In this document: positions 1,603 through 30,978 of the stretch, in pieces | Layout of the letters: each line of letters opens with the position of its first letter | Position numbering within the stretch: position 1 is the stretch's first letter | Made by a program: the position numbers and the translations under genes | Notes under the pieces: model-generated | What the model was told of the DNA's origin: nothing | The model's database searches: none | What the model saw: only the letters and a program-made list of their open reading frames with translations | From: Escherichia coli | Lineage (GTDB): Bacteria; Pseudomonadota; Gammaproteobacteria; Enterobacterales; Enterobacteriaceae | Direction: 5' to 3' (one strand) | NCBI RefSeq assembly: GCF_044647545.1 | Contig: NZ_CP172818.1 | DNA length: 64,000 nt

Positions 1603-1796
1603 TTACTTTGCTCCATTCCGTGCTGGCTGCGCTTGCGGTCAGCACACCTCACTTCTCGTGATCAAGATCACATTCTCGCTTTCCCCTGCGACACGGGTGT
1701 CGAATCCATTTATTGCTGAACGTTAATGACCATCATTTTTGTACCGTTCAGAATCCAGTTAACACATAAATTATTGAATATATTAAATTAATCAGA

Positions 1797-1813
1797 CTGG
1801 CATCCTTTATGCA
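1797..1813 (+). promoter_or_regulatory. Sigma-54 (-24/-12) promoter of the hyf operon
   Basis: cTGGCATcctttaTGCAa: GG and GC separated by 10 nt, matching TGGCAC-N5-TTGCA; about 40 nt upstream of the hyfA ATG; operon encodes a sigma-54 activator (HyfR). Confidence 0.7.
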
Positions 1814-1854: not shown

Positions 1855-2472
1855 ATGAACCGCTTTGTGGTGGCCGAACCACTGTGGTGTACAGGATGTA
1901 ATACCTGTCTCGCTGCCTGTTCGGACGTGCATAAAACGCAAGGTTTACAGCAACACCCGCGCCTGGCCCTGGCGAAGACGTCAACACTCACTGCCCCTGT
2001 CGTGTGTCATCACTGTGAGGAAGCCCCTTGCCTGCAGGTCTGCCCGGTCAATGCCATCTCCCAGAGGGACGATGCGATCCAACTCAACGAAAGCCTCTGT
2101 ATTGGCTGCAAGCTTTGCGCCGTGGTCTGCCCATTTGGCGCAATCAGCGCTTCAGGAAGCCGTCCGGTGAATGCCCCTGCGCAATATGTTTTTCAGGCTG
2201 AGGGCTCACTCAAAGACGGCGAAGAAAACGCGCCAACCCAACATGCTTTGCTGCGCTGGGAACCGGGTGTCCAGACCGTCGCGGTGAAATGCGACCTGTG
2301 TGATTTCTTGCCAGAAGGTCCGGCCTGCGTTCGCGCTTGTCCGAATCAGGCGTTACGGCTGATCACCGACGATAGCCTGCAACGTCAGATGAAAGAAAAA
2401 CAGCGCCTTGCCGCAAGCTGGTTTGCCAATGGCGGGGAGGATCCCCTTTCCCTCACTCAGGAGCAACGCTAA
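1855..2472 (+). CDS. hyfA: Hydrogenase-4 ferredoxin-like subunit (multiple 4Fe-4S Cys clusters)
   Basis: 205 aa from ATG 1855 after caaggag RBS; motifs CTGCNTCLAAC, CHHCEEAPC, CIGCKLCAVVCP, CDLC...CVRACP. Confidence 0.92.
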   Translation: MNRFVVAEPLWCTGCNTCLAACSDVHKTQGLQQHPRLALAKTSTLTAPVVCHHCEEAPCLQVCPVNAISQRDDAIQLNESLCIGCKLCAVVCPFGAISASGSRPVNAPAQYVFQAEGSLKDGEENAPTQHALLRWEPGVQTVAVKCDLCDFLPEGPACVRACPNQALRLITDDSLQRQMKEKQRLAASWFANGGEDPLSLTQEQR

Positions 2473-4490
2473 TGGATGCCCTGCAATTATTAACCTGGTC
2501 GCTGATCCTCTATCTGTTTGCCAGTCTGGCTTCGCTATTTTTACTCGGTCTGGACAGACTGGCTATTAAGCTTTCCGGCATCACATCGCTGGTGGGCGGC
2601 GTGATTGGCATCATCAGCGGAATTACGCAATTACATGCAGGCGTAACTTTAGCCGCCCGTTTTGCCACACCTTTTGAATTTGCCGATTTAACCCTGCGAA
2701 TGGATAGCCTCTCGGCATTTATGGTGCTGGTTATCTCCTTGCTGGTGGTGGTTTGTTCGCTCTATTCATTGACTTATATGCGCGAATACGAGGGTAAAGG
2801 CGCGGCGGCGATGGGCTTCTTTATGAATCTTTTCATCGCATCGATGGTTGCCCTGCTGGTGATGGACAACGCTTTTTGGTTCATCGTGCTGTTTGAAATG
2901 ATGTCGCTGTCTTCCTGGTTTCTGGTCATTGCCAGGCAGGATAAAACGTCGATCAACGCTGGCATGCTCTACTTTTTTATCGCCCACGCCGGATCGGTGC
3001 TGATTATGATCGCCTTCTTGCTGATGGGGCGCGAAAGCGGCAGCCTCGATTTTGCCAGTTTCCGCACGCTTTCACTTTCTCCGGGGCTGGCGTCGGCGGT
3101 GTTCCTGCTGGCCTTTTTCGGTTTTGGCGCGAAAGCCGGGATGATGCCGTTGCACAGCTGGTTGCCGCGCGCTCACCCTGCCGCACCATCGCACGCTTCG
3201 GCGTTGATGTCTGGCGTAATGGTCAAAATCGGTATTTTCGGCATCCTTAAAGTAGCGATGGATCTGCTGGCGCAAACGGATTTGCCGCTGTGGTGGGGCA
3301 TTCTGGTGATGGCGATCGGCGCAATCTCCGCGCTCCTGGGCGTGCTATATGCGCTGGCGGAACAGGATATCAAACGGCTGCTGGCCTGGAGTACCGTCGA
3401 AAACGTCGGCATTATTTTGCTGGCGGTCGGTGTGGCGATGGTCGGTCTGTCACTGCACGACCCGCTGCTCACCGTTGTTGGACTGCTCGGCGCGCTGTTT
3501 CATCTGCTCAACCATGCGCTGTTCAAAGGGCTGCTGTTTCTCGGCGCGGGCGCAATTATTTCGCGTTTGCATACCCACGACATGGAAAAAATGGGGGCAC
3601 TGGCGAAACGGATGCCGTGGACAGCCGCAGCATGCCTGATTGGTTGCCTCGCGATATCAGCCATTCCTCCGCTGAATGGTTTTATCAGCGAATGGTACAC
3701 CTGGCAGTCGCTGTTCTCACTAAGTCGTGTGGAAGCCGTAGCGCTACAACTTGCGGGTCCTATTGCTATGGTGATGCTGGCAGTCACTGGTGGGCTGGCA
3801 GTAATGTGCTTCGTCAAAATGTACGGCATTACTTTCTGTGGTGCGCCGCGCAGTACACACGCTGAAGAGGCACAGGACGTGCCAAATACGATGATCGTCG
3901 CCATGCTACTGCTCGCGGCACTCTGCGTATTCATTGCGCTTAGTGCCAGTTGGCTGGCACCGAAGATAATGCACATTGCCCATGCGTTTACCAATACCCC
4001 TCCCGTCACTGTCGCCAGCGGAATAGCACTTGTACCCGGCACGTTTCATACACGGGTCACTCCCTCATTACTGTTGCTGTTACTACTGGCGATGCCTTTG
4101 CTGCCTGGCCTTTACTGGCTGTGGTGTCGTTCGCGCCGCGCAGCGTTTCGTCGCACAGGAGATGCCTGGGCATGCGGCTACGGCTGGGATAATGCGATGG
4201 CCCCGTCAGGCAATGGCGTGATGCAGCCGCTGCGTGTGGTCTTTTGTGCGCTATTTCGTCTACGACAACAGCTCGACCCTACGCTGAGGCTGAACAAAGG
4301 TCTTGCGCACGTCACCGCCAGGGCTCAGAGCACAGAACCCTTCTGGGATGAGCGGGTGATCCGCCCCATCGTGAGCGCCACCCAACGGCTGGCCAAAGAA
4401 ATACAGCATCTGCAAAGCGGCGACTTTCGTCTCTATTGCCTGTATGTGGTCGCCGCACTGGTTGTGCTGCTAATCGCTATTGCCGTCTAA
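2472..4490 (+). CDS. hyfB: Hydrogenase-4 membrane subunit, NuoL/Mrp antiporter-like
   Basis: 672-aa polytopic hydrophobic ORF; start overlaps hyfA stop (TAATG). Confidence 0.92.
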   Translation: MDALQLLTWSLILYLFASLASLFLLGLDRLAIKLSGITSLVGGVIGIISGITQLHAGVTLAARFATPFEFADLTLRMDSLSAFMVLVISLLVVVCSLYSLTYMREYEGKGAAAMGFFMNLFIASMVALLVMDNAFWFIVLFEMMSLSSWFLVIARQDKTSINAGMLYFFIAHAGSVLIMIAFLLMGRESGSLDFASFRTLSLSPGLASAVFLLAFFGFGAKAGMMPLHSWLPRAHPAAPSHASALMSGVMVKIGIFGILKVAMDLLAQTDLPLWWGILVMAIGAISALLGVLYALAEQDIKRLLAWSTVENVGIILLAVGVAMVGLSLHDPLLTVVGLLGALFHLLNHALFKGLLFLGAGAIISRLHTHDMEKMGALAKRMPWTAAACLIGCLAISAIPPLNGFISEWYTWQSLFSLSRVEAVALQLAGPIAMVMLAVTGGLAVMCFVKMYGITFCGAPRSTHAEEAQDVPNTMIVAMLLLAALCVFIALSASWLAPKIMHIAHAFTNTPPVTVASGIALVPGTFHTRVTPSLLLLLLLAMPLLPGLYWLWCRSRRAAFRRTGDAWACGYGWDNAMAPSGNGVMQPLRVVFCALFRLRQQLDPTLRLNKGLAHVTARAQSTEPFWDERVIRPIVSATQRLAKEIQHLQSGDFRLYCLYVVAALVVLLIAIAV

Positions 4491-4500
4491 GGAAATCACC

Positions 4501-5448
4501 ATGAGACAAACTCTTTGCGACGGATATCTGATCATTTTTGCGTTAGCACAGGCCGTGATTCTGCTGGCGCTAACCCCGCTTTTTACGGGGATTTCCCGGC
4601 AGATACGCGCGCGTATGCACTCCCGTCGCGGACCGGGGATCTGGCAGGATTATCGCGATATCCACAAACTGTTTAAACGCCAGGAAGTTGCGCCGACATC
4701 TTCAGGTCTGATGTTCCGCCTGATGCCGTGGGTATTAATCAGCAGCATGCTGGTGCTGGCGATGGCCCTACCACTATTTATTACTGTTTCCCCTTTTGCG
4801 GGCGGCGGCGATCTGATCACCCTTATCTATCTTCTTGCCCTATTTCGTTTTTTCTTTGCTCTTTCCGGGCTGGATACCGGAAGCCCCTTTGCGGGAATCG
4901 GTGCCAGTCGCGAGTTAACGCTCGGCATTCTGGTCGAACCCATGCTCATTCTCTCACTGCTGGTATTGGCGCTGATAGCGGATTCCACGCATATCGAGAT
5001 GATCAGCAAGACGCTGGCGACGGGCTGGAACTCGCCGCTAACCACCGTACTGGCGTTACTGGCCTGTGGTTTTGCCTGCTTCATTGAGATGGGAAAAATT
5101 CCCTTTGATGTTGCTGAAGCAGAACAGGAATTACAGGAAGGCCCGCTGACCGAATATTCCGGTGCCGGGCTGGCGCTGGCGAAGTTGGGGCTGGGGCTGA
5201 AACAGGTCGTGATGGCATCACTGTTTGTGGCCCTGTTTCTGCCCTTTGGGCGCGCGCAAGAGCTTTCTCTCACCTGCCTGCTGACTTCACTTGTCGTTAC
5301 GCTGCTCAAGGTTTTGCTGATTTTTGTTCTGGCCTCTATCGCAGAAAACACGCTGGCACGCGGGCGATTTTTACTCATTCACCATGTGACCTGGCTTGGC
5401 TTCAGCCTTGCTGCGCTTGCCTGGGTCTTCTGGTTAACCGGTCTGTAA
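4501..5448 (+). CDS. hyfC: Hydrogenase-4 membrane subunit (NuoH/HycD-like)
   Basis: 315 aa from ATG 4501 (MRQTLCDGYLIIFALAQ...); hydrophobic; upstream ggaaatcacc RBS. Confidence 0.9.
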   Translation: MRQTLCDGYLIIFALAQAVILLALTPLFTGISRQIRARMHSRRGPGIWQDYRDIHKLFKRQEVAPTSSGLMFRLMPWVLISSMLVLAMALPLFITVSPFAGGGDLITLIYLLALFRFFFALSGLDTGSPFAGIGASRELTLGILVEPMLILSLLVLALIADSTHIEMISKTLATGWNSPLTTVLALLACGFACFIEMGKIPFDVAEAEQELQEGPLTEYSGAGLALAKLGLGLKQVVMASLFVALFLPFGRAQELSLTCLLTSLVVTLLKVLLIFVLASIAENTLARGRFLLIHHVTWLGFSLAALAWVFWLTGL

Positions 5449-5464
5449 GGAGCACTAACGGAAT

Positions 5465-6904
5465 ATGGAAAATCTTGCTCTGACGACGTTATTGCTGCCT
5501 TTTATCGGCGCACTGGTCGTTTCGTTTTCGCCACAACGTCGGGCCGCCGAATGGGGGGTTTTGTTCGCCGCGCTGACCACGCTGTGCATGTTGTCACTGA
5601 TCTCCGCGTTTTATCAGGCCGATAAAGTTGCCGTCACGTTGACGTTGGTCAACGTGGGGGATGTGGCGTTGTTTGGCCTGGTCATTGATCGCGTGAGTAC
5701 GCTGATTCTGTTTGTGGTGGTGTTCCTCGGTTTGCTGGTCACGATCTACTCCACGGGTTATCTGACGGATAAAAATCGCGAACACCTGCATAACGGCACG
5801 AATCGTTATTACGCATTTTTGCTGGTTTTTATCGGCGCGATGGCGGGACTGGTACTCTCCTCGACGCTGCTCGGTCAGTTGTTGTTTTTTGAAATTACGG
5901 GCGGCTGCTCCTGGGCGTTGATCAGTTATTACCAGAGCGATAAAGCGCAGCGTTCAGCACTAAAAGCGTTACTTATCACTCATATCGGTTCGCTGGGGTT
6001 GTATCTTGCCGCCGCCACGCTGTTTTTGCAGACCGGAACGTTTGCGCTTAGCGCGATGAGCGAGTTACACGGCGACGCACGTTATCTGGTTTATGGCGGC
6101 ATCCTGTTTGCCGCGTGGGGGAAATCGGCCCAGCTACCGATGCAAGCGTGGCTACCGGATGCAATGGAAGCGCCAACACCGATCAGCGCCTATCTCCACG
6201 CCGCATCGATGGTGAAAGTGGGCGTTTACATTTTTGCCCGTGCCATTATCGACGGCGGCAATATCCCGCATGTGATTGGCGGCGTTGGCATGGTTATGGC
6301 ACTGGTCACCATTCTTTACGGCTTCCTGATGTATTTGCCACAGCAGGATATGAAGCGGTTGCTGGCCTGGTCGACCATCACTCAACTTGGCTGGATGTTT
6401 TTCGGCTTGTCGCTCTCCATCTTCGGCTCGCGGCTGGCGCTGGAGGGCAGCATCGCCTACATCGTCAACCACGCGTTCGCTAAAAGCCTATTTTTCCTTG
6501 TAGCAGGTGCGCTGAGTTACAGCTGCGGCACGCGCTTGTTGCCGCGTCTGCGTGGCGTATTGCACACCCTGCCGTTGCCAGGCGTGGGTTTCTGCGTAGC
6601 CGCGCTGGCGATTACTGGCGTACCGCCGTTCAACGGCTTCTTCAGTAAATTCCCGCTGTTTGCCGCCGGTTTTTCGTTGTCAGTGGAGTACTGGATCCTG
6701 CTGCCCGCCATGATTCTGCTGATGTTTGAATCGGTCGCCAGTTTCGCCTGGTTTATTCGCTGGTTTGGTCGCGTCGTGCCTGGCAAACCGAGCGAGGCCG
6801 TCGCCGATGCCGCACCGCTGCCAGGATCAATGCGCCTGGTGTTGATTGTACTGATTGTGATGTCGCTGATTTCCAGCGTAATCGCCGCGACCTGGTTGCA
6901 GTAA
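5465..6904 (+). CDS. hyfD: Hydrogenase-4 membrane subunit, antiporter-like (NuoM/N family)
   Basis: 479-aa polytopic ORF, paralogous in character to hyfB and hyfF. Confidence 0.9.
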   Translation: MENLALTTLLLPFIGALVVSFSPQRRAAEWGVLFAALTTLCMLSLISAFYQADKVAVTLTLVNVGDVALFGLVIDRVSTLILFVVVFLGLLVTIYSTGYLTDKNREHLHNGTNRYYAFLLVFIGAMAGLVLSSTLLGQLLFFEITGGCSWALISYYQSDKAQRSALKALLITHIGSLGLYLAAATLFLQTGTFALSAMSELHGDARYLVYGGILFAAWGKSAQLPMQAWLPDAMEAPTPISAYLHAASMVKVGVYIFARAIIDGGNIPHVIGGVGMVMALVTILYGFLMYLPQQDMKRLLAWSTITQLGWMFFGLSLSIFGSRLALEGSIAYIVNHAFAKSLFFLVAGALSYSCGTRLLPRLRGVLHTLPLPGVGFCVAALAITGVPPFNGFFSKFPLFAAGFSLSVEYWILLPAMILLMFESVASFAWFIRWFGRVVPGKPSEAVADAAPLPGSMRLVLIVLIVMSLISSVIAATWLQ

Positions 6905-6915
6905 GGAGATGATGA

Positions 6916-7566
6916 ATGACCGGTTCTATGATCGTAAATAATCTGGCGGGACTGATGATGCTGACATCGCTGTTTGTGATTAGCGTCAAAAGCTATCGCC
7001 TGTCATGCGGATTTTACGCCTGCCAGTCGCTGGTGCTGGTGTCTATTTTCGCCACCCTCTCGTGCCTGTTCGTCGCAGAGCAACTGCTGATCTGGTCCGC
7101 CAGCGCCTTTATCACCAAAGTGCTGCTGGTACCGTTAATCATGATTTACGCTGCACGAAATATTCCCCAGAACATCCCGGAAAAAGCGTTATTCGGTCCG
7201 GCTATGATGGCATTGCTCGCGGCATTAATTGTCCTGCTTTGCGCATTTGTCGTTCAGCCCGTGAAGCTACCGATGGCTACCGGGCTGAAACCGGCGCTGG
7301 CGGTGGCGTTAGGTCATTTTCTGCTTGGCCTGCTGTGCATTGTCAGCCAGCGCAATATCCTGCGGCAAATTTTTGGTTACTGCCTGATGGAAAACGGCTC
7401 CCATCTGGTGCTGGCGCTTCTTGCCTGGCGTGCACCGGAACTGGTGGAAATTGGTATCGCTACCGACGCCATCTTCGCCGTCATTGTGATGGTGTTACTG
7501 GCAAGAAAAATATGGCGTACCCACGGCACGCTGGACGTGAACAACTTGACCGCGCTGAAGGGATAA
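6916..7566 (+). CDS. hyfE: Hydrogenase-4 small membrane subunit (NuoK-like)
   Basis: 216-aa hydrophobic ORF in operon context. Confidence 0.88.
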
Positions 7567-7570
7567 TGAG

Positions 7571-9151
7571 ATGAGTTATTCTGTGATGTTCGCTTTACTC
7601 CTGCTCACGCCGCTGCTTTTTTCGCTGCTCTGTTTTGCCTGCCGGAAATGGGGACACTCTGCGACTCGCACGGTGACAGTACTACATAGCTTAGGGATCA
7701 CACTGCTGCTGATTCTGACACTGTGGGTGGTCCAAACTGCCGCTGATGCGGGAGAAATATTCGCTGCGGGACTGTGGCTTCATATTGATGGTCTGGGCGG
7801 TTTGTTCCTCGCCATTCTTGGTGTGATTGGCTTTCTCACCGGTGTTTACTCGATTGGCTACATGCGTCATGAAGTGGCACACGGCGAGCTTTCACCCGTT
7901 ACGCTGTGCGATTACTACGGTTTCTTCCATCTGTTTTTGTTCACCATGCTGCTGGTTGTTACCAGCAATAACCTGATTGTGATGTGGGCGGCGATCGAAG
8001 CCACCACCTTAAGCTCGGCGTTTCTGGTAGGCATTTACGGTCAGCGTTCATCGCTGGAAGCTGCATGGAAGTACATCATTATTTGTACTGTTGGTGTCGC
8101 TTTTGGTCTGTTCGGTACCGTGCTGGTATACGCCAACGCCGCCAGCGTTATGCCGCAGGCAGAAATGGCGATATTCTGGAGCGAGGTTCTTAAGCAATCG
8201 TCCTTGCTTGACCCAACATTAATGCTGTTGGCCTTTGTGTTTGTGCTAATTGGCTTTGGCACCAAAACCGGGCTATTCCCCATGCACGCCTGGCTGCCAG
8301 ATGCTCACAGTGAAGCGCCGAGTCCGGTCAGCGCCCTGCTCTCCGCCGTATTGCTGAACTGCGCGCTATTGGTGCTGATTCGCTATTACATCATTATTTG
8401 CCAGGCCATCGGCAGCGATTTCCCCAACCGGTTGTTGCTCATCTTCGGCATGTTGTCGGTTGCCGTGGCGGCATTTTTCATTCTGGTACAGCGGGACATT
8501 AAGCGTCTGCTGGCGTACTCCAGCGTGGAGAACATGGGACTGGTCGCGGTGGCGTTAGGCATTGGCGGGCCGCTGGGAATTTTTGCCGCGCTGCTGCACA
8601 CCTTAAACCACAGTCTGGCAAAAACGCTGCTGTTCTGCGGTTCCGGCAATGTACTGCTCAAGTACGGCACGCGCGATCTCAACGTCGTCTGCGGAATGCT
8701 CAAAATCATGCCATTTACCGCCGTGCTGTTTGGCGGCGGTGCGCTGGCGCTGGCCGGGATGCCGCCCTTCAACATTTTTCTTAGCGAATTTATGACCGTT
8801 ACCGCCGGACTGGCGCGTAATCACCTGCTGATTATCGTCCTGCTGTTATTGCTGTTAACGCTGGTGCTGGCGGGCCTGGTACGGATGGCTGCGCGGGTGT
8901 TAATGGCGAAACCGCCGCAGGCCGTTAACCGGGGTGAACTTGGCTGGTTGACCACCTCGCCAATGGTGATTCTGCTGGTCATGATGCTGGCGATGGGAAC
9001 GCATATTCCACAACCTGTCATCAGGATCCTGGCGGGCGCTTCCACTATAGTCCTCTCAGGGACGCACGACCTGCCTGCACAACGTAGCACCTGGCATGAT
9101 TTTTTGCCTTCAGGCACCGCATCTGTTTCGGAGAAACACAGTGAACGTTAA
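7571..9151 (+). CDS. hyfF: Hydrogenase-4 membrane subunit, antiporter-like
   Basis: 526-aa polytopic ORF; third antiporter-like paralog in the operon. Confidence 0.9.
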
Positions 9152-10856
9152 TTCATCGTCAAATCGTGGCGAAGCGATTCTCGCCGCCCTGAAAACGCAG
9201 TTCCCCGGCGCGGTGCTGGATGAAGAGCGACAAACGCCTGAACAGGTCACCATTACGGTGAAAATCAATCTGCTGCCTGACGTTGTGCATTATCTTTATT
9301 ATCAACATGATGGCTGGCTTCCGGTCCTGTTTGGCAACGACGAGCGGACACTTAACGGTCATTACGCGGTTTATTATGCCCTTTCTATGGAAGGGGCCGA
9401 AAAATGCTGGATCGTGGTGAAGGCACTGGTCGATGCCGACAGTCGGGAGTTTCCGTCAGTCACACCGCGCGTCCCTGCCGCGGTCTGGGGCGAGCGAGAA
9501 ATTCGCGATATGTACGGGTTGATTCCGGTTGGCCAGCCGGATCAGCGTCGGCTGGTGTTGCCCGATGACTGGCCGGAAGATATGCATCCGCTGCGCAAAG
9601 ACGCGATGGATTATCGACTGCGCCCAGAACCGACGACTGATACCGAAACGTATCCGTTTATCAACGAGGGCAACAGCGATGCGCGGGTGATCCCTGTCGG
9701 CCCGCTGCATATCACCTCCGATGAACCAGGTCACTTCCGCTTGTTTGTGGATGGCGAGCAAATTGTCGATGCTGATTACCGCCTGTTTTATGTCCATCGC
9801 GGCATGGAGAAACTGGCAGAAACGCGGATGGGCTACAACGAAGTGACCTTCTTATCCGACCGCGTGTGTGGGATTTGCGGTTTTGCCCACAGTGTGGCCT
9901 ATACCAACTCGGTTGAAAATGCACTGGGGATTGAGGTGCCGCAACGAGCGCATACTATTCGCTCGATTCTGCTGGAAGTCGAACGGCTGCATAGTCATTT
10001 GCTCAACCTTGGCCTCTCCTGCCATTTTGTTGGTTTTGATACCGGCTTTATGCAATTTTTCCGCGTGCGGGAAAAGTCGATGACGATGGCGGAATTGCTG
10101 ACCGGGTCGCGTAAAACCTACGGTCTGAATCTGATTGGTGGTGTTCGCCGCGATATTCTCAAAGAGCAACGTCTGCAAACGCTGAAACTGGTGCGCGAGA
10201 TGCGCGCCGACGTGTCGGAGCTGGTAGAGATGTTGCTTGCCACGCCGAATATGGAACAACGCACTCAGGGCATTGGCATTCTCGACCGACAAATCGCCCG
10301 TGATTATAGCCCCGTAGGGCCGCTGATCCGCGGCAGTGGCTTTGCCCGTGATTTGCGCTTTGATCACCCCTACGCCGACTACGGCAATATTCCCAAAACG
10401 CTGTTTACCTTTACCGGCGGCGATGTCTTCTCCCGCGTGATGGTCCGTGTCAAAGAGACGTTTGATTCGCTGGCAATGCTGGAATTTGCCCTCGACAACA
10501 TGCCAGATACCCCACTGCTGACCGAAGGCTTTAGCTATAAACCTCACGCATTCGCGCTGGGCTTTGTTGAAGCGCCACGTGGTGAAGACGTGCACTGGAG
10601 CATGCTCGGTGATAACCAAAAATTGTTCCGCTGGCGCTGTCGTGCCGCCACCTACGCCAACTGGCCAGTGCTGCGTTACATGCTGCGCGGCAATACCGTT
10701 TCTGACGCACCGCTGATTATCGGTAGCCTTGATCCCTGTTACTCCTGTACCGACCGTGTGACGCTGGTTGATGTGCGCAAGCGCCAGTCAAAAACCGTGC
10801 CGTATAAAGAGATCGAACGCTACGGCATTGATCGTAACCGTTCGCCGCTGAAGTAA
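9141..10856 (+). CDS. hyfG: Hydrogenase-4 [NiFe] large catalytic subunit
   Basis: N-terminal NiFe ligand motif [10 protein letters not shown] and C-terminal DPCYSCTDR. Start ambiguous: GTG 9141 (overlaps hyfF stop by 11 nt) or ATG 9096. Confidence 0.9.
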
Positions 10857-10865
10857 GGACAGAAA

Positions 10866-11411
10866 ATGCTGAAGTTACTGAAAACTATTATGCGCGCCGG
10901 AACCGCGACGGTGAAATATCCCTTCGCGCCACTGGAGGTCAGCCCAGGCTTTCGCGGGAAACCGGACCTGATGCCCAGCCAATGTATTGCCTGCGGTGCC
11001 TGCGCCTGTGCTTGTCCGGCAAATGCGCTGACTATCCAGACCGACGACCAACAAAATACGCGCACCTGGCAGCTCTATCTGGGGCGTTGTATTTACTGCG
11101 GACGTTGTGAAGAAGTGTGCCCGACCAGAGCCATTCAGCTTACCAATAACTTTGAACTGACCGTCACCAATAAAGCCGATCTCTATACCCGCGCGACGTT
11201 TCATCTACAACGTTGCAGTCGTTGCGAACGCCCATTTGCCCCGCAAAAAACCGTCGCACTGGCTGCAGAACTGTTGGCACAGCAACAAAATGCGCCACAA
11301 AACCGCGAAATGTTGTGGGCGCAAGCGAGCATCTGCCCGGAATGCAAACAACGCGCGACGCTGATCAACGACGATACAGATGTACCGCTGGTGGCTAAGG
11401 AGCAGCTATGA
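10866..11411 (+). CDS. hyfH: Hydrogenase-4 ferredoxin-type subunit (2x 4Fe-4S)
   Basis: 181 aa; [12 protein letters not shown] and [12 protein letters not shown] motifs. Confidence 0.9.
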
Positions 11412-12166
11412 GTCCAGTGCTTACGCAACATGTCAGCCAGCCCATAACGCTGGACGAGCAAACGCAAAAGATGAAGCAGCATTTGCTACAGGATATCCGT
11501 CGCTCGGCTTACGTTTATCGCGTCGATTGCGGCGGCTGCAACGCCTGCGAAATCGAAATTTTTGCCGCCATCACACCCGTATTCGACGCAGAACGTTTTG
11601 GCATTAAGGTTGTTTCATCACCGCGTCACGCCGATATTTTGTTATTTACTGGCGCAGTCACCCGGGCGATGCGTATGCCTGCACTTCGGGCATATGAGTC
11701 TGCCCCCGATCATAAAATCTGTGTTTCCTACGGCGCGTGCGGTGTCGGCGGCGGTATTTTCCACGATCTTTACAGCGTCTGGGGCGGCAGCGACACCATT
11801 GTCCCCATTGATGTTTGGATCCCCGGCTGCCCGCCAACACCGGCCGCCACCATTCACGGTTTCGCCGTGGCGCTCGGTTTGCTGCAACAGAAGATTCACG
11901 CGGTGGATTATCGCGATCCCACCGGGGTGACCATGCAACCGCTGTGGCCGCAGATCCCGCCATCACAGCGTATCGCCATTGAGCGAGAAGCGAGGCGGCT
12001 GGCGGGCTATCGTCAAGGGCGAGAAATTTGCGATCGGCTCCTGCGCCATTTAAGCGACGATCCTACAGGAAATCGGGTTAACACCTGGTTGCGCGAAGCT
12101 GACGATCCACGTCTCAATAGTATCGTTCAGCAACTCTTTCGCGTTCTCCGGGGGTTACATGGCTGA
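11408..12166 (+). CDS. hyfI: Hydrogenase-4 small subunit (NuoB/HycG-like, Fe-S)
   Basis: 252 aa; CGGCNAC ... GACGVGGG ... PGCPP motifs typical of NuoB-type small subunits; overlaps hyfH stop. Confidence 0.9.
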
Positions 12167-12572
12167 GGAGTGCAGGGAAATTGTTTTCTGGACGCTGCGA
12201 AAAAAATTTATCGCCAGTAGCGACGAGATGCCGGAACACAGCTCCCAGGTAATGTATTACTCGTTGGCTATCGGTCATCACGTTGGCGTGATTGATTGTT
12301 TGAATGTCGCCTTCCGCTGCCCACAGACGGAATACGAAGATTGGCTTGCACAGGTCGAAGAGGAGCAAGCCCGACGTAAGATGCTGGGGGTGATGACTTT
12401 TGGTGAGATTGTTATTGACGCCAGCCACACCGCCCTGTTGACCCGGGCATTCGCGCCACTGGCAGATGACGCGACGTCGGCGTGGCAGGCGCGTAGCATT
12501 CAATTCATTCATCTGTTGGATGAAATTGTGCAGGAACCGGTCATCTATCTGATGGCCAGAAAAATTGCGTGA
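12159..12572 (+). CDS. hyfJ: Hydrogenase-4 maturation/assembly factor (HycH-like)
   Basis: 137-aa ORF overlapping hyfI 3' end; operon position. Confidence 0.85.
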
Positions 12573-12601
12573 GAAGGATTTCTCATTAATAAGGACTGTT
12601 G

Positions 12602-14614
12602 ATGGCTATGTCAGACGAGGCGATGTTTGCCCCGCCGCAAGGAATAACAATTGAAGCGGTAAACGGAATGCTCGCGGAGCGGTTAGCACAGAAACACGGC
12701 AAGGCGTCTTTATTACGCGCCTTCATCCCGCTGCCGCCGCCGTTCAGCCCGGTACAACTTATTGAACTGCATGTTCTCAAAAGCAACTTCTATTACCGCT
12801 ACCATGATGATGGCAGCGATGTGACGGCAACAACAGAGTATCAGGGTGAGATGGTCGATTATTCGCGCCACGCCGTCCTTCTCGGCAGTAGTGGAATGGC
12901 GGAGCTACGCTTTATTCGCACCCACGGCAGTCGTTTTACTCCCCAGGATTGCACACTGTTTAACTGGCTGGCACACATAATCACTCCGGTTCTGCAATCA
13001 TGGCTCAATGATGAAGAACAGCAGGTGGCGCTGCGTTTGCTGGAGAAAGATCGCGATCATCATCGGGTACTGGTGGATATCACTAATGCAGTGTTGTCAC
13101 ATCTTGATCTCGACGATCTGATCGCTGACGTCGCTCGTGAGATCCATCATTTTTTCGGTCTGGCTTCAGTCAGTATGGTACTGGGCGATCATCGAAAGAA
13201 CGAGAAGTTCAGCCTGTGGTGCAGCGATCTTTCTGCCTCACATTGTGCGTGTCTGCCACGCTGTATGCCTGGCGAAAGTGTATTGCTGACACAAACGCTA
13301 CAAACCCGACAACCGACCTTGACGCACTGTGCAGACGATCTGTTTCTCTGGCAACGCGACCCGTTATTACACTTACTTGCATCTAACGGCTGCGAATCTG
13401 CGCTCCTTATACCGCTCACCTTTGGCAACCATACACCGGGTGCATTGTTGCTGGCGCATACCTCTTCCACTCTCTTTAGTGAGGAAAACTGCCAGCTACT
13501 ACAACATATTGCCGATCGCATCGCTATTGCCGTTGGCAATGCCGATGCCTGGCGCAGCATGACCGATTTGCAGGAAAGCTTGCAGCAAGAAAACCACCAG
13601 CTTAGCGAGCAGCTCCTTTCGAATCTGGGCGTCGGTGACATTATCTATCAAAGCCAGGCAATGGAAGACCTGCTCCAGCAGGTAGATATTGTGGCGAAGA
13701 GCGACAGTACGGTGTTGATTTGTGGTGAAACCGGAACCGGCAAAGAGGTGATCGCCAGAGCGATCCATCAACTTAGCCCACGACGCGACAAGCCACTGGT
13801 CAAAATCAACTGCGCTGCCATCCCCGCCAGTCTTCTGGAAAGTGAGTTATTCGGTCATGACAAAGGGGCATTTACTGGTGCGATTAATACCCATCGTGGT
13901 CGTTTTGAAATTGCCGATGGCGGCACGTTGTTTCTCGATGAAATTGGCGATCTGCCGTTAGAACTTCAGCCTAAACTGCTGCGCGTATTGCAGGAACGGG
14001 AGATTGAGCGTCTCGGCGGGAGTAGAACGATCCCGGTAAATGTCAGAGTCATTGCCGCCACCAACCGTGATTTGTGGCAAATGGTTGAAGATCGCCAGTT
14101 TCGCAGCGATCTCTTTTATCGCCTGAATGTCTTCCCACTGGAACTGCCGCCACTGCGCGACCGTCCGGAAGATATCCCTCTTTTAGCAAAGCATTTCACG
14201 CAAAAAATGGCGCGCCATATGAATCGCGCAATTGACGCCATCCCGACCGAGGCGCTACGCCAGTTGATGTCGTGGGACTGGCCGGGCAACGTGCGCGAGC
14301 TGGAAAACGTGATTGAGCGAGCGGTACTACTGACTCGCGGTAACAGTCTGAATTTACATCTTAATGTCCGACAAAGCCGTTTACTGCCGACGCTAAATGA
14401 AGATTCAGCGCTTCGCAGTTCAATGGCGCAGTTACTGCACCCGACGACGCCAGAGAATGACGAAGAAGAACGTCAGCGCATTGTTCAGGTATTGCGAGAA
14501 ACCAATGGCATTGTTGCCGGGCCCCGTGGCGCGGCGACACGATTAGGGATGAAGCGCACCACGCTGCTGTCACGAATGCAGCGTCTGGGGATCTCGGTTC
14601 GCGAGGTGTTGTAA
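12602..14614 (+). CDS. hyfR: Sigma-54-dependent transcriptional activator of hyf (FhlA paralog)
   Basis: 670 aa from ATG 12602; Walker A GETGTGKE, sigma-54 contact motif GAFTGA, C-terminal HTH. Confidence 0.92.
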
Positions 14615-14635
14615 TCTGTTTTTGCAGGAGTATGC

Positions 14636-15484
14636 ATGAGAAACAAACTCTCTTTCGACTTGCAGTTGAGCGCCAGAAAAGCGGCAATCGCTGAACGGAT
14701 TGCCGCCCATAAAATTACCCGCAGCAAAGTGTCGGTCTTTTTAATGGCGATGTCCGCAGGCGTGTTTATGGCGATCGGATTTACTTTTTACCTTACCGTT
14801 ATCGCCGATGCCCCGTCTTCACAGGCATTAACCCATCTGGTGGGCGGCCTTTGCTTTACACTCGGCTTTATTTTGCTGGCGGTTTGCGGCACCAGCCTGT
14901 TCACCTCGTCGGTAATGACGGTGATGGCAAAAAGTCGGGGCGTTATTAGCTGGCGAACATGGCTGATTAATGCACTTCTGGTGGCCTGCGGTAATCTGGC
15001 AGGTATTGCCTGTTTCAGTTTGTTAATCTGGTTTTCCGGGCTGGTGATGAGTGAAAACGCGATGTGGGGAGTCGCGGTTTTACACTGCGCCGAGGGCAAA
15101 ATGCATCATACATTTACTGAATCAGTCAGCCTCGGCATTATGTGCAATGTGATGGTTTGCCTGGCGCTGTGGATGAGTTATTGCGGACGTTCGTTATGCG
15201 ACAAAATCGTCGCCATGATTTTGCCCATCACCCTGTTTGTCGCCAGTGGCTTTGAGCACTGTATCGCCAATTTATTTGTGATTCCGTTCGCCATTGCCAT
15301 TCGCCATTTCGCCCCTACCTCCTTCTGGCAACTGGCGCACAGTAGCGCAGACCATTTTCCGGCACTGACGGTCAGCCATTTTATTACCGCCAATCTGCTC
15401 CCGGTGATGCTGGGTAATATTATCGGCGGTGCAGTGCTGGTGAGTATTTGTTATCGGGCTATTTATTTACGTCAGGAACCCTAA
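14636..15484 (+). CDS. focB: Formate channel, FNT family
   Basis: 282-aa polytopic ORF at the end of the hyf operon. Confidence 0.9.
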   Translation: MRNKLSFDLQLSARKAAIAERIAAHKITRSKVSVFLMAMSAGVFMAIGFTFYLTVIADAPSSQALTHLVGGLCFTLGFILLAVCGTSLFTSSVMTVMAKSRGVISWRTWLINALLVACGNLAGIACFSLLIWFSGLVMSENAMWGVAVLHCAEGKMHHTFTESVSLGIMCNVMVCLALWMSYCGRSLCDKIVAMILPITLFVASGFEHCIANLFVIPFAIAIRHFAPTSFWQLAHSSADHFPALTVSHFITANLLPVMLGNIIGGAVLVSICYRAIYLRQEP

Positions 15485-15486
15485 AA

Positions 15487-15516
15487 ATCAGCCCGGCGAA
15501 ACAGTTCGTCGGGCTG
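15487..15516. terminator. Bidirectional hairpin terminator between focB and perM
   Basis: cagcccggcgaa-acag-ttcgtcgggctg stem-loop flanked by an A-run (left) and T-rich tract (right), between convergent genes. Confidence 0.6.
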
Positions 15517-15520
15517 AAGA

Positions 15521-16582
15521 TTATTCTTGCGCGATTTGCCCATCGGGCCAGGCGTGAATCACGGCTTTGATCAGCGTCGCCAATGGAATGGCGAAGAATA
15601 CGCCCCAGAATCCCCACAAACCACCGAAGATCACCACCGATAAAATAATCACCAGCGGATGCAGGTTAACCGCTTCGGAGAACAACACCGGCACTAGCAG
15701 GTTGCCGTCCAGCGCCTGAATGATCAGATACACCGCGAAGCAGCTCCAGAATTCCGTGCCAGCACCAAACTGGAATAGCGCCACGCCAATCACCGGAATG
15801 GTCACCACAAATGCGCCAATGTACGGAATAAGAACCGAGAAGCCGACCAGCACCGCCAGCAGCAGCGAATAGTTCAGCCCGAAGAGTAAGAACCCCAGCC
15901 AGGTGGCGATCCCCACCACGATCATCTCCAGCACTTTGCCGCGGATATAGTTGGTGATTTGTTGATTCATCTCCTTCCACACCTGTCCTGCCAGTCCGCG
16001 GTTACGCGGTAGCACCCGACGAACGGCGTTCAGCATCTGCTCTTTGTCTTTCAGCAGGAAGAAGACCATCAATGGCACCAGCACCAGATAGACAGCTATG
16101 GTGAGCAAACCGACCAGCGAGGCGAGGGAAATTTTCACCACCGAATCGCCCATGGTCAGCATCCGACTGCGCATATTTTCGGCCATTGCATCAATAATGC
16201 CCGCGTCCATTAACGCCGGATAGCGGCGCGGCAACGTGGCGGCAAAGTCAGAAAGCTTATTGAGCATCCCCGGCATATCGCGAATTAAGTAGATGCCCTG
16301 CTGCCAGGCGATAGGCAATACCACGAACGCCATCAGTAGCAATATACCGACGAAAACCACCAATACAATCGACGTCGCCCAGCGGCGGGAGCAGCCAATA
16401 GATTGCAGGCGCACGGTTGGCCATTCCAGCAAATAGGCCAGCACAATAGCCACCAGCAACGGAGCAAGCAGGCCACTAAAGAAAAAGATAATGCCAAATC
16501 CGGCAACTAAAATAACCAGCAAGGCAATCGCTTCCGGGTCGCTAAAACGGCGGCGATACCATTGCATCAACATTTCGAGCAT
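15521..16582 (-). CDS. perM: AI-2E family inner-membrane transporter/permease
   Basis: 353-aa polytopic ORF (yfgO). Confidence 0.88.
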   Translation of the reverse strand: MLEMLMQWYRRRFSDPEAIALLVILVAGFGIIFFFSGLLAPLLVAIVLAYLLEWPTVRLQSIGCSRRWATSIVLVVFVGILLLMAFVVLPIAWQQGIYLIRDMPGMLNKLSDFAATLPRRYPALMDAGIIDAMAENMRSRMLTMGDSVVKISLASLVGLLTIAVYLVLVPLMVFFLLKDKEQMLNAVRRVLPRNRGLAGQVWKEMNQQITNYIRGKVLEMIVVGIATWLGFLLFGLNYSLLLAVLVGFSVLIPYIGAFVVTIPVIGVALFQFGAGTEFWSCFAVYLIIQALDGNLLVPVLFSEAVNLHPLVIILSVVIFGGLWGFWGVFFAIPLATLIKAVIHAWPDGQIAQE

Positions 16583-30459: not shown

Positions 30460-30978
30460 GTGATGAAATTTAAAAAATGTCTTCTGCCTGTGGCAATGTT
30501 AGCGTCATTCACTCTGGCAGGATGCCAGTCAAATGCTGATGATCATGCCGCCGATGTTTATCAAACCGATCAACTGAATACCAAACAAGAAACTAAAACC
30601 GTTAATATTATTTCCATTCTTCCCGCAAAAGTTGCCGTAGACAACTCCCAAAATAAACGAAACGCACAAGCCTTCGGCGCGCTTATTGGTGCAGTCGCTG
30701 GCGGTGTAATCGGCCACAACGTGGGGTCTGGCAGCAATTCCGGAACGACGGCAGGTGCAGTTGGCGGCGGAGCTGTTGGCGCGGCAGCGGGTTCTATGGT
30801 GAATGATAAAACCTTAGTGGAAGGTGTTTCTCTAACGTATAAGGAAGGCACCAAAGTGTATACCTCCACCCAGGTGGGTAAAGAGTGCCAGTTTACGACA
30901 GGTTTAGCCGTTGTTATTACCACGACGTATAACGAAACGCGTATTCAGCCAAATACCAAATGTCCTGAAAAGAGCTAA
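30460..30978 (+). CDS. yfgH: Outer-membrane lipoprotein with glycine-zipper motif
   Basis: 172 aa; lipobox LAGCQ; Gly/Ala-rich GALIGAVAGGVIGHNVGSG... segment. Confidence 0.85.
   Translation: MMKFKKCLLPVAMLASFTLAGCQSNADDHAADVYQTDQLNTKQETKTVNIISILPAKVAVDNSQNKRNAQAFGALIGAVAGGVIGHNVGSGSNSGTTAGAVGGGAVGAAAGSMVNDKTLVEGVSLTYKEGTKVYTSTQVGKECQFTTGLAVVITTTYNETRIQPNTKCPEKS

Follow-up and report, generated by a model that had tools for sequence, protein, structure and literature searches.

A structurally complete hyf operon in Escherichia coli with a full-length hyfG gene, and the 48-bp hyfG deletion of the K-12 reference strain

Introduction

We have analyzed a 64,000-nucleotide stretch of Escherichia coli DNA (contig NZ_CP172818.1), hereafter called the window, in which positions 1855-15484 carry the hyf operon. 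This operon, known since 1997, encodes hydrogenase-4 (Hyd-4), the core of formate hydrogenlyase-2 (FHL-2). Among bacterial systems that have retained H2 production, FHL-2 is the one most closely related to complex I, and in E. coli it has been called a "long-standing mystery" by Lindenstrauss and Pinske (10.1101/563510); a 2026 paper lists E. coli among the FHL-2 organisms with no further comment. Work on Hyd-4 has almost all been done with K-12. The locus as such is textbook material, and the added value lies in its contrast with the reference strain: hyfG, the gene for the catalytic large subunit, is full length in the window, whereas an internal 48-bp segment of this gene is missing from K-12 MG1655.

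Results

Gene content and identity of the locus

The region consists of twelve co-directional open reading frames (ORFs), hyfABCDEFGHIJR-focB, on the plus strand (Table 1), and an ORF check of positions 1855-15484 found no internal stop in any of the twelve frames. This stretch is 100% identical to many complete RefSeq E. coli chromosomes, in which the twelve genes are annotated under these same names, and in a profile search HyfB, HyfD, HyfE, HyfF, HyfH and FocB passed NCBIfam equivalog or exception cut-offs. The gene bcp lies upstream of hyfA and the convergent yfgO downstream of focB, and 5425 of 5426 complete E. coli genomes match at least the flanks of the stretch. The region is thus confirmed as the chromosomal E. 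coli hyf operon encoding Hyd-4, the FHL-2 core, a [NiFe]-hydrogenase of the group 4a type. A first-pass annotation of the window had named the same twelve intact genes, with coordinates identical to ours, as a known, not novel, hydrogenase-4/FHL-2-type locus having three antiporter-like subunits, its own sigma-54 activator and a formate channel, and all of this agrees with the present results. It had also described the genes as tightly packed with overlapping stops and starts; the first part holds, but overlaps occur at only four of the eleven junctions (A/B, 1 nt; F/G, 11 nt; H/I, 4 nt; I/J, 8 nt), the remaining seven having gaps of 4-29 nt.

Table 1. Features of the hyf locus, in window coordinates.
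Feature	Position	Strand	Description
Inverted repeat	1689-1702	+	Perfect repeat CGACAC-GG-GTGTCG (CGACACGGGTGTCG), found by repeat search; about 100 bp upstream of the -24 element; unchanged in five E. coli alleles
-24/-12 element	1798-1813	+	Sigma-54 type, TGGCATCCTTTATGCA; 42 nt upstream of the hyfA ATG; GG and GC at consensus spacing (sequence reading and pattern search)
hyfA	1855-2472	+	205-aa poly-ferredoxin, HycB-like; Pfam 4Fe-4S dicluster domains; 50% identity to HycB
hyfB	2472-4490	+	672-aa antiporter-like membrane subunit, HycC/NuoL-like; NF005086 "hydrogenase 4 subunit B", 976 bits (cut-off 667)
hyfC	4501-5448	+	315-aa NuoH/HycD-like membrane subunit; PF00146, 198.8 bits; 52% identity to HycD
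hyfD	5465-6904	+	479-aa antiporter-like subunit, absent from FHL-1; NF005097, 804 bits (cut-off 430)
hyfE	6916-7566	+	216-aa membrane subunit; NF008556 equivalog, 366.9 bits (cut-off 136); PF00420 at residues 127-216
hyfF	7571-9151	+	526-aa antiporter-like subunit, absent from FHL-1; NF005041, 1174 bits (cut-off 951)
hyfG	9141-10856	+	Full-length 571-aa [NiFe] large subunit, GTG start; PF00329, PF00346, PF00374
Left direct repeat	10296-10305	+	10 bp, GCCCGTGATT, flanking the K-12 deletion (DNA alignment)
48-bp segment	10296-10343	+	HyfG residues 386-401, 16 codons; deleted in K-12 MG1655 (DNA and protein alignments)
Right direct repeat	10344-10353	+	10 bp, GCCCGTGATT (DNA alignment)
HyfG C-terminal tail	10758-10853	+	32 residues after DPCYSCTDR; as long as the HycE tail (C-terminal alignment)
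hyfH	10866-11411	+	181-aa 2x[4Fe-4S] subunit, HycF/NuoI-like; NF006076, 363.8 bits (cut-off 270)
hyfI	11408-12166	+	252-aa small subunit, HycG/NuoB-like; PF01058; 62% identity to HycG
hyfJ	12159-12572	+	137-aa HycH-family large-subunit assembly chaperone; PF07450, 189.7 bits; NF011664, 206 bits (cut-off 145)
hyfR	12602-14614	+	670-aa sigma-54-dependent activator; GAF, AAA+ sigma-54 interaction domain and C-terminal region; PF01590, PF00158, PF25601
focB	14636-15484	+	282-aa formate/nitrite-transporter-family channel; NF007261 "formate transporter FocB", 643 bits (cut-off 499); PF01226
Hairpin	15488-15517	+	13-bp G+C-rich stem between convergent focB and yfgO; top terminator-like site in the scan

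A 48-bp segment of hyfG is missing from K-12

The window hyfG is 1716 bp long and encodes 571 residues, compared with 1668 bp and 555 residues in K-12 MG1655. The K-12 deletion is in frame and lies between two copies of the direct repeat GCCCGTGATT, so that CAAATC directly joins GCCCGTGATTTGC at position 11642/11643 of the K-12 MG1655 locus. A 10-bp direct repeat at the ends of a deletion reads as a signature of slippage or illegitimate recombination. Tested for the K-12-type deleted allele, the window does not qualify, as the 48 bp are in place. Searches of the full-text literature found no description of the deletion, subscription-only papers (e.g., Andrews 1997, Sargent 2016) lying outside their reach.

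The segment is present and near-unchanged, as ARD[YF]S[PN]VGP[ML][IV]R[AG]SG[FH], in all 115 close homologues from other genera, and exactly 16 residues occupy this place in 122 of the 127 diverse representatives that span the region (30-74% identity). It also aligns without gaps to HycE, to Pyrococcus MbhL and to the 49-kDa subunits of complex I from bacteria to mitochondria. The sequences with a gap at the segment were all derived from E. coli, and no natural homologue outside E. coli was found without it. Because the segment is near-universal in the homologues and the gap is confined to E. coli-derived sequences, this comparison indicates that full-length hyfG is the ancestral form. A few entries encountered here are database oddities, not natural variants of other taxa: one (P0231) is a 218-residue sequence resembling a C-to-T-converted (bisulfite-like) translation of K-12-type hyfG, and two others (P0004 and P0005) are 740-residue HyfG-HyfH read-through fusions with the K-12 junction.

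HyfG starts with a NuoC-like domain (PF00329, residues 39-155), followed by the NuoD/NiFe domain (PF00374 and PF00346), and is 72% identical to HycE, the large subunit of hydrogenase-3 (Hyd-3). The cysteines of the [NiFe] site are all there, C243 and C246 in the N-terminal RxCGxCxxxH-type motif and C533 and C536 in DPCYSCTDR, as are the canopy and proton-pathway residues S285, H286, R397, E439, R480 and D531, whose HycE counterparts are S283, H284, R395, E437, R478 and D529 (PMC9474812). In the cryo-electron microscopy study of FHL-1, R478, D529, H284, E437 and R395 of HycE were proposed to form a proton-transfer pathway, and this pathway was noted to be conserved in soluble hydrogenases, the archaeal membrane-bound hydrogenase (MBH) and complex I, where the equivalent of R395 is NDUFS2 R297 (PMC9474812). 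By alignment, HycE R395 is the arginine of GPMVRASG and corresponds to HyfG R397, which lies within the segment deleted in K-12.

An alignment of 109 diverse sequences has only eleven invariant columns. Of these, G393 and R397 belong to the deleted segment, and D404 and R406 follow shortly after it. The AlphaFold2 (AF2) model of HyfG built with this alignment has a mean predicted local distance difference test score (pLDDT) of 92.3; an earlier AlphaFold run with 40 close homologues reached a pLDDT of 65 and was discarded. The segment is ordered in the model (pLDDT about 98): helix 383-389 ends within it, and a turn and a short helix (394-397) follow. K-12 HyfG is therefore without a buried, invariant part of the fold carrying a proposed catalytic-pathway residue. 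As the deletion takes both G393 and R397, the counterpart of the HycE proton-pathway arginine, K-12 HyfG is very probably inactive or unstable, a dead catalytic subunit. The K-12 form is nevertheless the UniProt reference (HYFG_ECOLI), and both alleles share one database name.

Maturation of HyfG

The first-pass annotation had asked for a check of the C-terminal processing site of HyfG, and had argued that no large-subunit endopeptidase is encoded in the operon and that one must be supplied from elsewhere. The processing region is present, as DPCYSCTDR followed by the 32-residue tail, which has low pLDDT within the otherwise confident AF2 model, as expected of a cleavable assembly peptide. HycE is cleaved after R537 (PMC7654741), and HyfG would be expected to be cleaved after R539. 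In tblastn searches with the K-12 Hyc proteins, homologues of HycB-H were found, while none of HycI or HycA were found anywhere in the 64-kb window, in line with the claim that the operon has no protease gene of its own. The gene hycI occurs elsewhere in 5425 of the 5426 complete E. coli genomes, and E. coli HycI matures the Pectobacterium Hyd-4 large subunit (PMC7654741). Given these two observations, maturation of HyfG by HycI acting in trans is plausible.

Distribution of hyfG alleles and decay of the operon in E. coli

The population sample comprised 5426 complete E. coli genomes and is clinically biased. Using blastn with word size 11, the 48-bp segment was found to be kept in 2179 genomes (about 40%), and the K-12 deletion junction was found in 2113 (39%); these two counts account for the 4291 genomes holding the locus. 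A megablast search with the 48-nt segment returned 350 genomes only, which is an undercount, as one central single-nucleotide polymorphism removes every 28-nt seed. In about 1134 genomes (about 21%), hyfA to focB are cleanly lost and bcp adjoins yfgO, consistent with the loss of hyf reported for the F/G/B2 lineage (PMC6896753).

A tree built from sixteen hyfG alleles groups its eight deletion alleles in one cluster. The full-length allele of strain 14EC007 differs from that of K-12 by 1 nt outside the 48 bp, and K-12 and the bovine strain E2865, which are 1.07% different across the operon, share an 870-bp identical block around the deletion. In view of these findings, we favour a single, fairly recent origin of the deletion, with spread by descent and recombination.

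Further lesions were seen in both groups. An identical -1 (single-T) frameshift in hyfI, at the equivalent of window position 11755 (E2865 locus position 10433), is carried by at least 686 complete genomes; of the seven deletion-type genomes examined, five have it. The small subunit is thereby cut short ahead of its last cysteine motif; the window hyfI is without the frameshift. Seven genomes with full-length hyfG were sampled, of which only three, namely O157:H7 BB24-1, SCU-172 and a deer isolate, showed no further lesion or flag. In O145:H28 RM12761, ISEc20 splits focB (13236-15534 of that locus) and hyfH is 105 bp shorter (9571-10011 of that locus), another independent route of hyf decay, while the three other full-length genomes carry frameshift flags, which may be assembly errors. 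Separately, ATCC 8739 and E. coli C (1845-2384 of their loci) and one further locus, L011 (its positions 9571-10110), have a hyfH of 540 instead of 546 bp, a difference of 6 bp.

Selection and substitutions

Pairwise dN/dS (the ratio of nonsynonymous to synonymous substitution rates) of the hyf genes fell between 0.09 and 0.17 for most pairs, the closest pair giving 0.24, compared with 0.00-0.03 for yfgO and bepA. The hyf genes have thus been under real but comparatively weak purifying selection, with a long-term dN/dS of about 0.10-0.15. As a test of relaxed constraint after the deletion, dN/dS was uninformative and was set aside: deleted and full-length pairs gave similar values, and the ratio is silent on such relaxation because the deletion haplotype is young. 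Between the window and K-12, each protein differs by 2-10 substitutions (66 in all; 3 in HyfA), and the sole indel is that in hyfG. The residues W27, G28 and H29 of HyfF, which stand against RRL in K-12, were considered as a compensated frameshift; this was rejected, since at the DNA level they are point substitutions within a hypervariable loop.

The first-pass annotation had held that the intactness of the locus is relevant to its expression and function, and had named as a refutation any inactivating mutations that closer alignment of individual genes might bring to light. The first point proved apt, since hyfG is whole in the window and not in the K-12 reference. As to the second, the frames are open and the ligands kept; the caveat is a leucine-to-glutamine change in HyfG, L132Q (window 9534-9536, VGLPD to VGQPD). 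It is private to the window lineage: HycE, each of the nine other E. coli alleles and at least 90% of 40 orthologues have leucine at position 132.

The other subunits

HyfA is presumed to be the entry point of electrons from FdhH. The cysteine motifs CGGCxxC, GACG and GCPP of HyfI are intact and match those of HycG. The C-terminal half of HyfE is NuoK-like, and this protein is the marker subunit that distinguishes FHL-2 from FHL-1 (10.1101/563510). Over residues 101-668, HyfR aligns to the FhlA model with 640 bits; the FhlA cut-off is 830, and a score short of it is what one expects of a paralogue.

Aligned with E. coli NuoL, NuoM and NuoN, all three antiporter-like subunits, HyfB, HyfD and HyfF, keep the glutamate of transmembrane helix (TM) 5, the lysine of TM7 and the lysine or glutamate of TM12. 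In HyfB, E142, K221, K252 and E407 align with the key residues of NuoM; in HyfD, E143, K220, K251 and K395 are conserved; and in HyfF, E143, K232 and E406 are conserved. The TM8 lysine is kept in HyfB and HyfD, while HyfF has an asparagine (N263) at this position.

Non-coding elements

The -24/-12 element TGGCATCCTTTATGCA is a sequence match only, and is unchanged in five E. coli alleles. A sigma-54 promoter has reportedly been described for hyf by Skibinski et al. in 2002. Base 1797, immediately before the -24 TGG, is C, the consensus-like base, in the window, O157:H7 and the deer isolate, and A in K-12 and E2865, both of which are deletion-type operons. The palindrome upstream of this element is a candidate HyfR/FhlA enhancer site, and the hairpin beyond focB is likely to be a bidirectional terminator that closes the operon.

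With respect to the source of the window, strain IMT16316 is identical to it across hyf but is collinear with it only up to window position 30601. Beyond the equivalent of about this position, IMT16316 carries an approximately 33-kb prophage and IS1, where the window instead continues as core chromosome. Identity of the window with IMT16316 throughout was therefore rejected.

Discussion

Our reading of these data, to which we give a probability of roughly 0.8, is that the window carries a structurally complete, ancestral hyf operon for Hyd-4/FHL-2 with full-length hyfG, and that the K-12 allele is very probably dead. We infer how such an operon would be expressed, assembled, active and coupled to ion movement as follows: transcription would start from the sigma-54-type promoter (1798-1813), driven by HyfR, and by FhlA with formate; FocB would pass formate in or out, and FdhH, encoded elsewhere, would oxidize it; electrons would travel via the Fe-S proteins HyfA, HyfH and HyfI to the [NiFe] site of HyfG, where protons would be reduced to H2; this soluble arm would sit on a five-subunit membrane arm of HyfC, HyfE, HyfB, HyfD and HyfF; HyfJ would act as chaperone of HyfG, which HycI would then cut in trans after R539; and, as HyfB, HyfD and HyfF keep the lysine and glutamate residues used in proton pumping by complex I, the reaction may be coupled to ion translocation.

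Several points weigh against this reading. Some reports describe Hyd-4-dependent H2 phenotypes of K-12 hyf mutants at alkaline pH; if they are correct, either the K-12 allele keeps some function, or other Hyf subunits act independently of HyfG. The case for inactivation of K-12 HyfG by the 16-residue deletion is drawn from conservation. The species is shedding the operon, about 21% of genomes being without it and 39% having the hyfG deletion, and the sampled full-length genomes include some with a focB insertion, a shortened hyfH or frameshift flags. The dN/dS of hyf is 5-10 times that of the flanking genes. Set against nine other E. coli alleles, 15 missense changes are private to the window lineage itself, among them HyfG L132Q and the non-conservative HyfB G270D and HyfD P108L. 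Finally, weak activity or silence of the hyf promoter has been reported for E. coli (PMC7654741, 10.1101/563510), and the same may be true of the window.

Earlier experiments bear on how far the reading may be extended. Finney et al. (2020) put Phyc or T5 in place of the hyf promoter of K-12, gave HyfG the tail of HycE and provided proteases, and obtained no H2; fifteen engineered K-12 strains failed, which was blamed on "additional, unknown, biosynthetic problems" in assembly, and the HyfG alignment shown in that work covers the last 93 residues only (PMC7654741). It is conceivable, and we suggest it tentatively, at somewhat less than even odds, that the 48-bp deletion is this unknown biosynthetic problem, that strains with full-length hyfG make an active, possibly energy-conserving FHL-2, and that about three-fifths of sequenced E. 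coli are natural Hyd-4 nulls. If so, these nulls, arising by deletion or by loss of the operon, would include every K-12 laboratory strain.

A different view is that the window operon is intact in frame, yet silent or decaying, a cryptic relic, with the K-12 difference being one defect among several. The losses seen across the species (the operon in about 1134 genomes, the hyfG segment in 2113 and the hyfI frame in at least 686), the finding that only three of seven sampled full-length genomes are without further lesions or flags, a dN/dS several-fold above that of the neighbours, private changes of the window at conserved positions such as HyfG L132Q, and the reportedly poor native expression in E. 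coli all speak for it. However, the twelve frames, all the cofactor ligands and all the pathway residues are intact, a dN/dS of about 0.1 is a long way from neutrality, the promoter element does not vary and is nearer to the sigma-54 consensus in the window than in K-12, and orthologous complexes are active in related genera. We regard this view as a serious one that is nonetheless rather doubtful.

It might also be argued that the 16-residue deletion is tolerated, so that K-12 HyfG is functional and equivalent to the window allele, and the failures with K-12 were due to expression, to assembly factors or to the assay. The deletion is indeed in frame and is carried by 2113 genomes, the dN/dS of a pair of deletion-bearing operons (0.136) does not exceed that of full-length pairs, and there are the contested hyf-dependent phenotypes of K-12. 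However, the dN/dS argument weighs little with a haplotype this young, as indicated by the 870-bp block shared by K-12 and E2865 and by a full-length allele that, outside the 48 bp, is 1 nt away from that of K-12. Moreover, the segment is never missing from natural homologues outside E. coli, it is well ordered in the model, its loss removes two of the eleven invariant residues and with them the proposed proton-pathway arginine, and a second inactivating lesion, the hyfI frameshift, was seen in five of seven such genomes and occurs in at least 686 overall. Tolerance of the deletion is therefore improbable. Least likely is that the HyfB-F membrane arm is kept for a role independent of HyfG, such as association with Hyd-3 or ion fluxes, since, even though its antiporter-like residues are conserved and the operon persists under ongoing purifying selection in hyfG-deletion genomes, nothing in the sequence suggests a function of its own for this arm, full-length lineages conserve the catalytic subunits just as well, and the deletion haplotype appears recent.

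The window operon carries the ancestral form of hyfG, whereas practically all experiments on Hyd-4 have been done with the deletion allele. The gap in K-12 turns the Hyd-4 mystery, which dates from 1997, into a direct, inexpensive, one-step test. Users of UniProt and EcoCyc should also be warned that the HyfG reference sequence is that of the mutant allele.

The K-12 operon (hyfABCDEFGHIJR-focB, b2481-b2492), reportedly described by Andrews et al. in 1997, has the same twelve genes in the same order, the same neighbours (bcp and yfgO) and the same sigma-54-type element as the window operon, and neither includes a protease gene; it differs from the window in that its HyfG lacks residues 386-401 and in having A rather than C before the -24 TGG.

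The soluble arm and two membrane subunits of FHL-1, the Hyd-3 complex encoded by the E. coli hyc operon (structures 7Z0S and 7Z0T), are homologous to those of hyf, with identities of 50% for HyfA/HycB, 39% for HyfB/HycC, 52% for HyfC/HycD, 72% for HyfG/HycE, 45% for HyfH/HycF, 62% for HyfI/HycG and 48% for HyfJ/HycH. FHL-1 and the window system share the [NiFe] ligands, the canopy and proton-pathway residues and the 32-residue C-terminal peptide. However, FHL-1 has no counterparts of HyfD, HyfE and HyfF and encodes HycA and the protease HycI, neither of which is encoded in the window, while the hyf operon, unlike hyc, has its own activator (HyfR) and formate channel (FocB). Proton pumping by FHL-1 is not thought to occur (2026 paper).

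The FHL-2 operons of Pectobacterium atrosepticum and Trabulsiella guamensis contain the same ten genes, hyfA-J, including those for the five-subunit membrane arm. Their HyfG proteins are about 80% identical to that of the window and have the full ARDYSPVGP(M/L)IR(A/G)SGF segment, and these operons carry their own protease gene, hyfK, and no focB, the reverse of the situation in the window. FHL-2 of these organisms, with full-length HyfG, is demonstrably active and needs FdhH and a HycI-type protease (PMC7654741, 10.1101/563510).

Complex I (Nuo) differs in that a quinone site replaces the [NiFe] site, the four metal-binding cysteines are missing and the electron-input module is a different one. 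Complex I and the archaeal MBH share with hyf the modular architecture (HyfG corresponding to NuoCD, HyfI to NuoB, HyfH to NuoI, HyfC to NuoH, HyfE to NuoK, and HyfB, HyfD and HyfF to NuoL, NuoM and NuoN), the charged residues of the antiporter-like subunits, and the G..RxSG...D.R motif.

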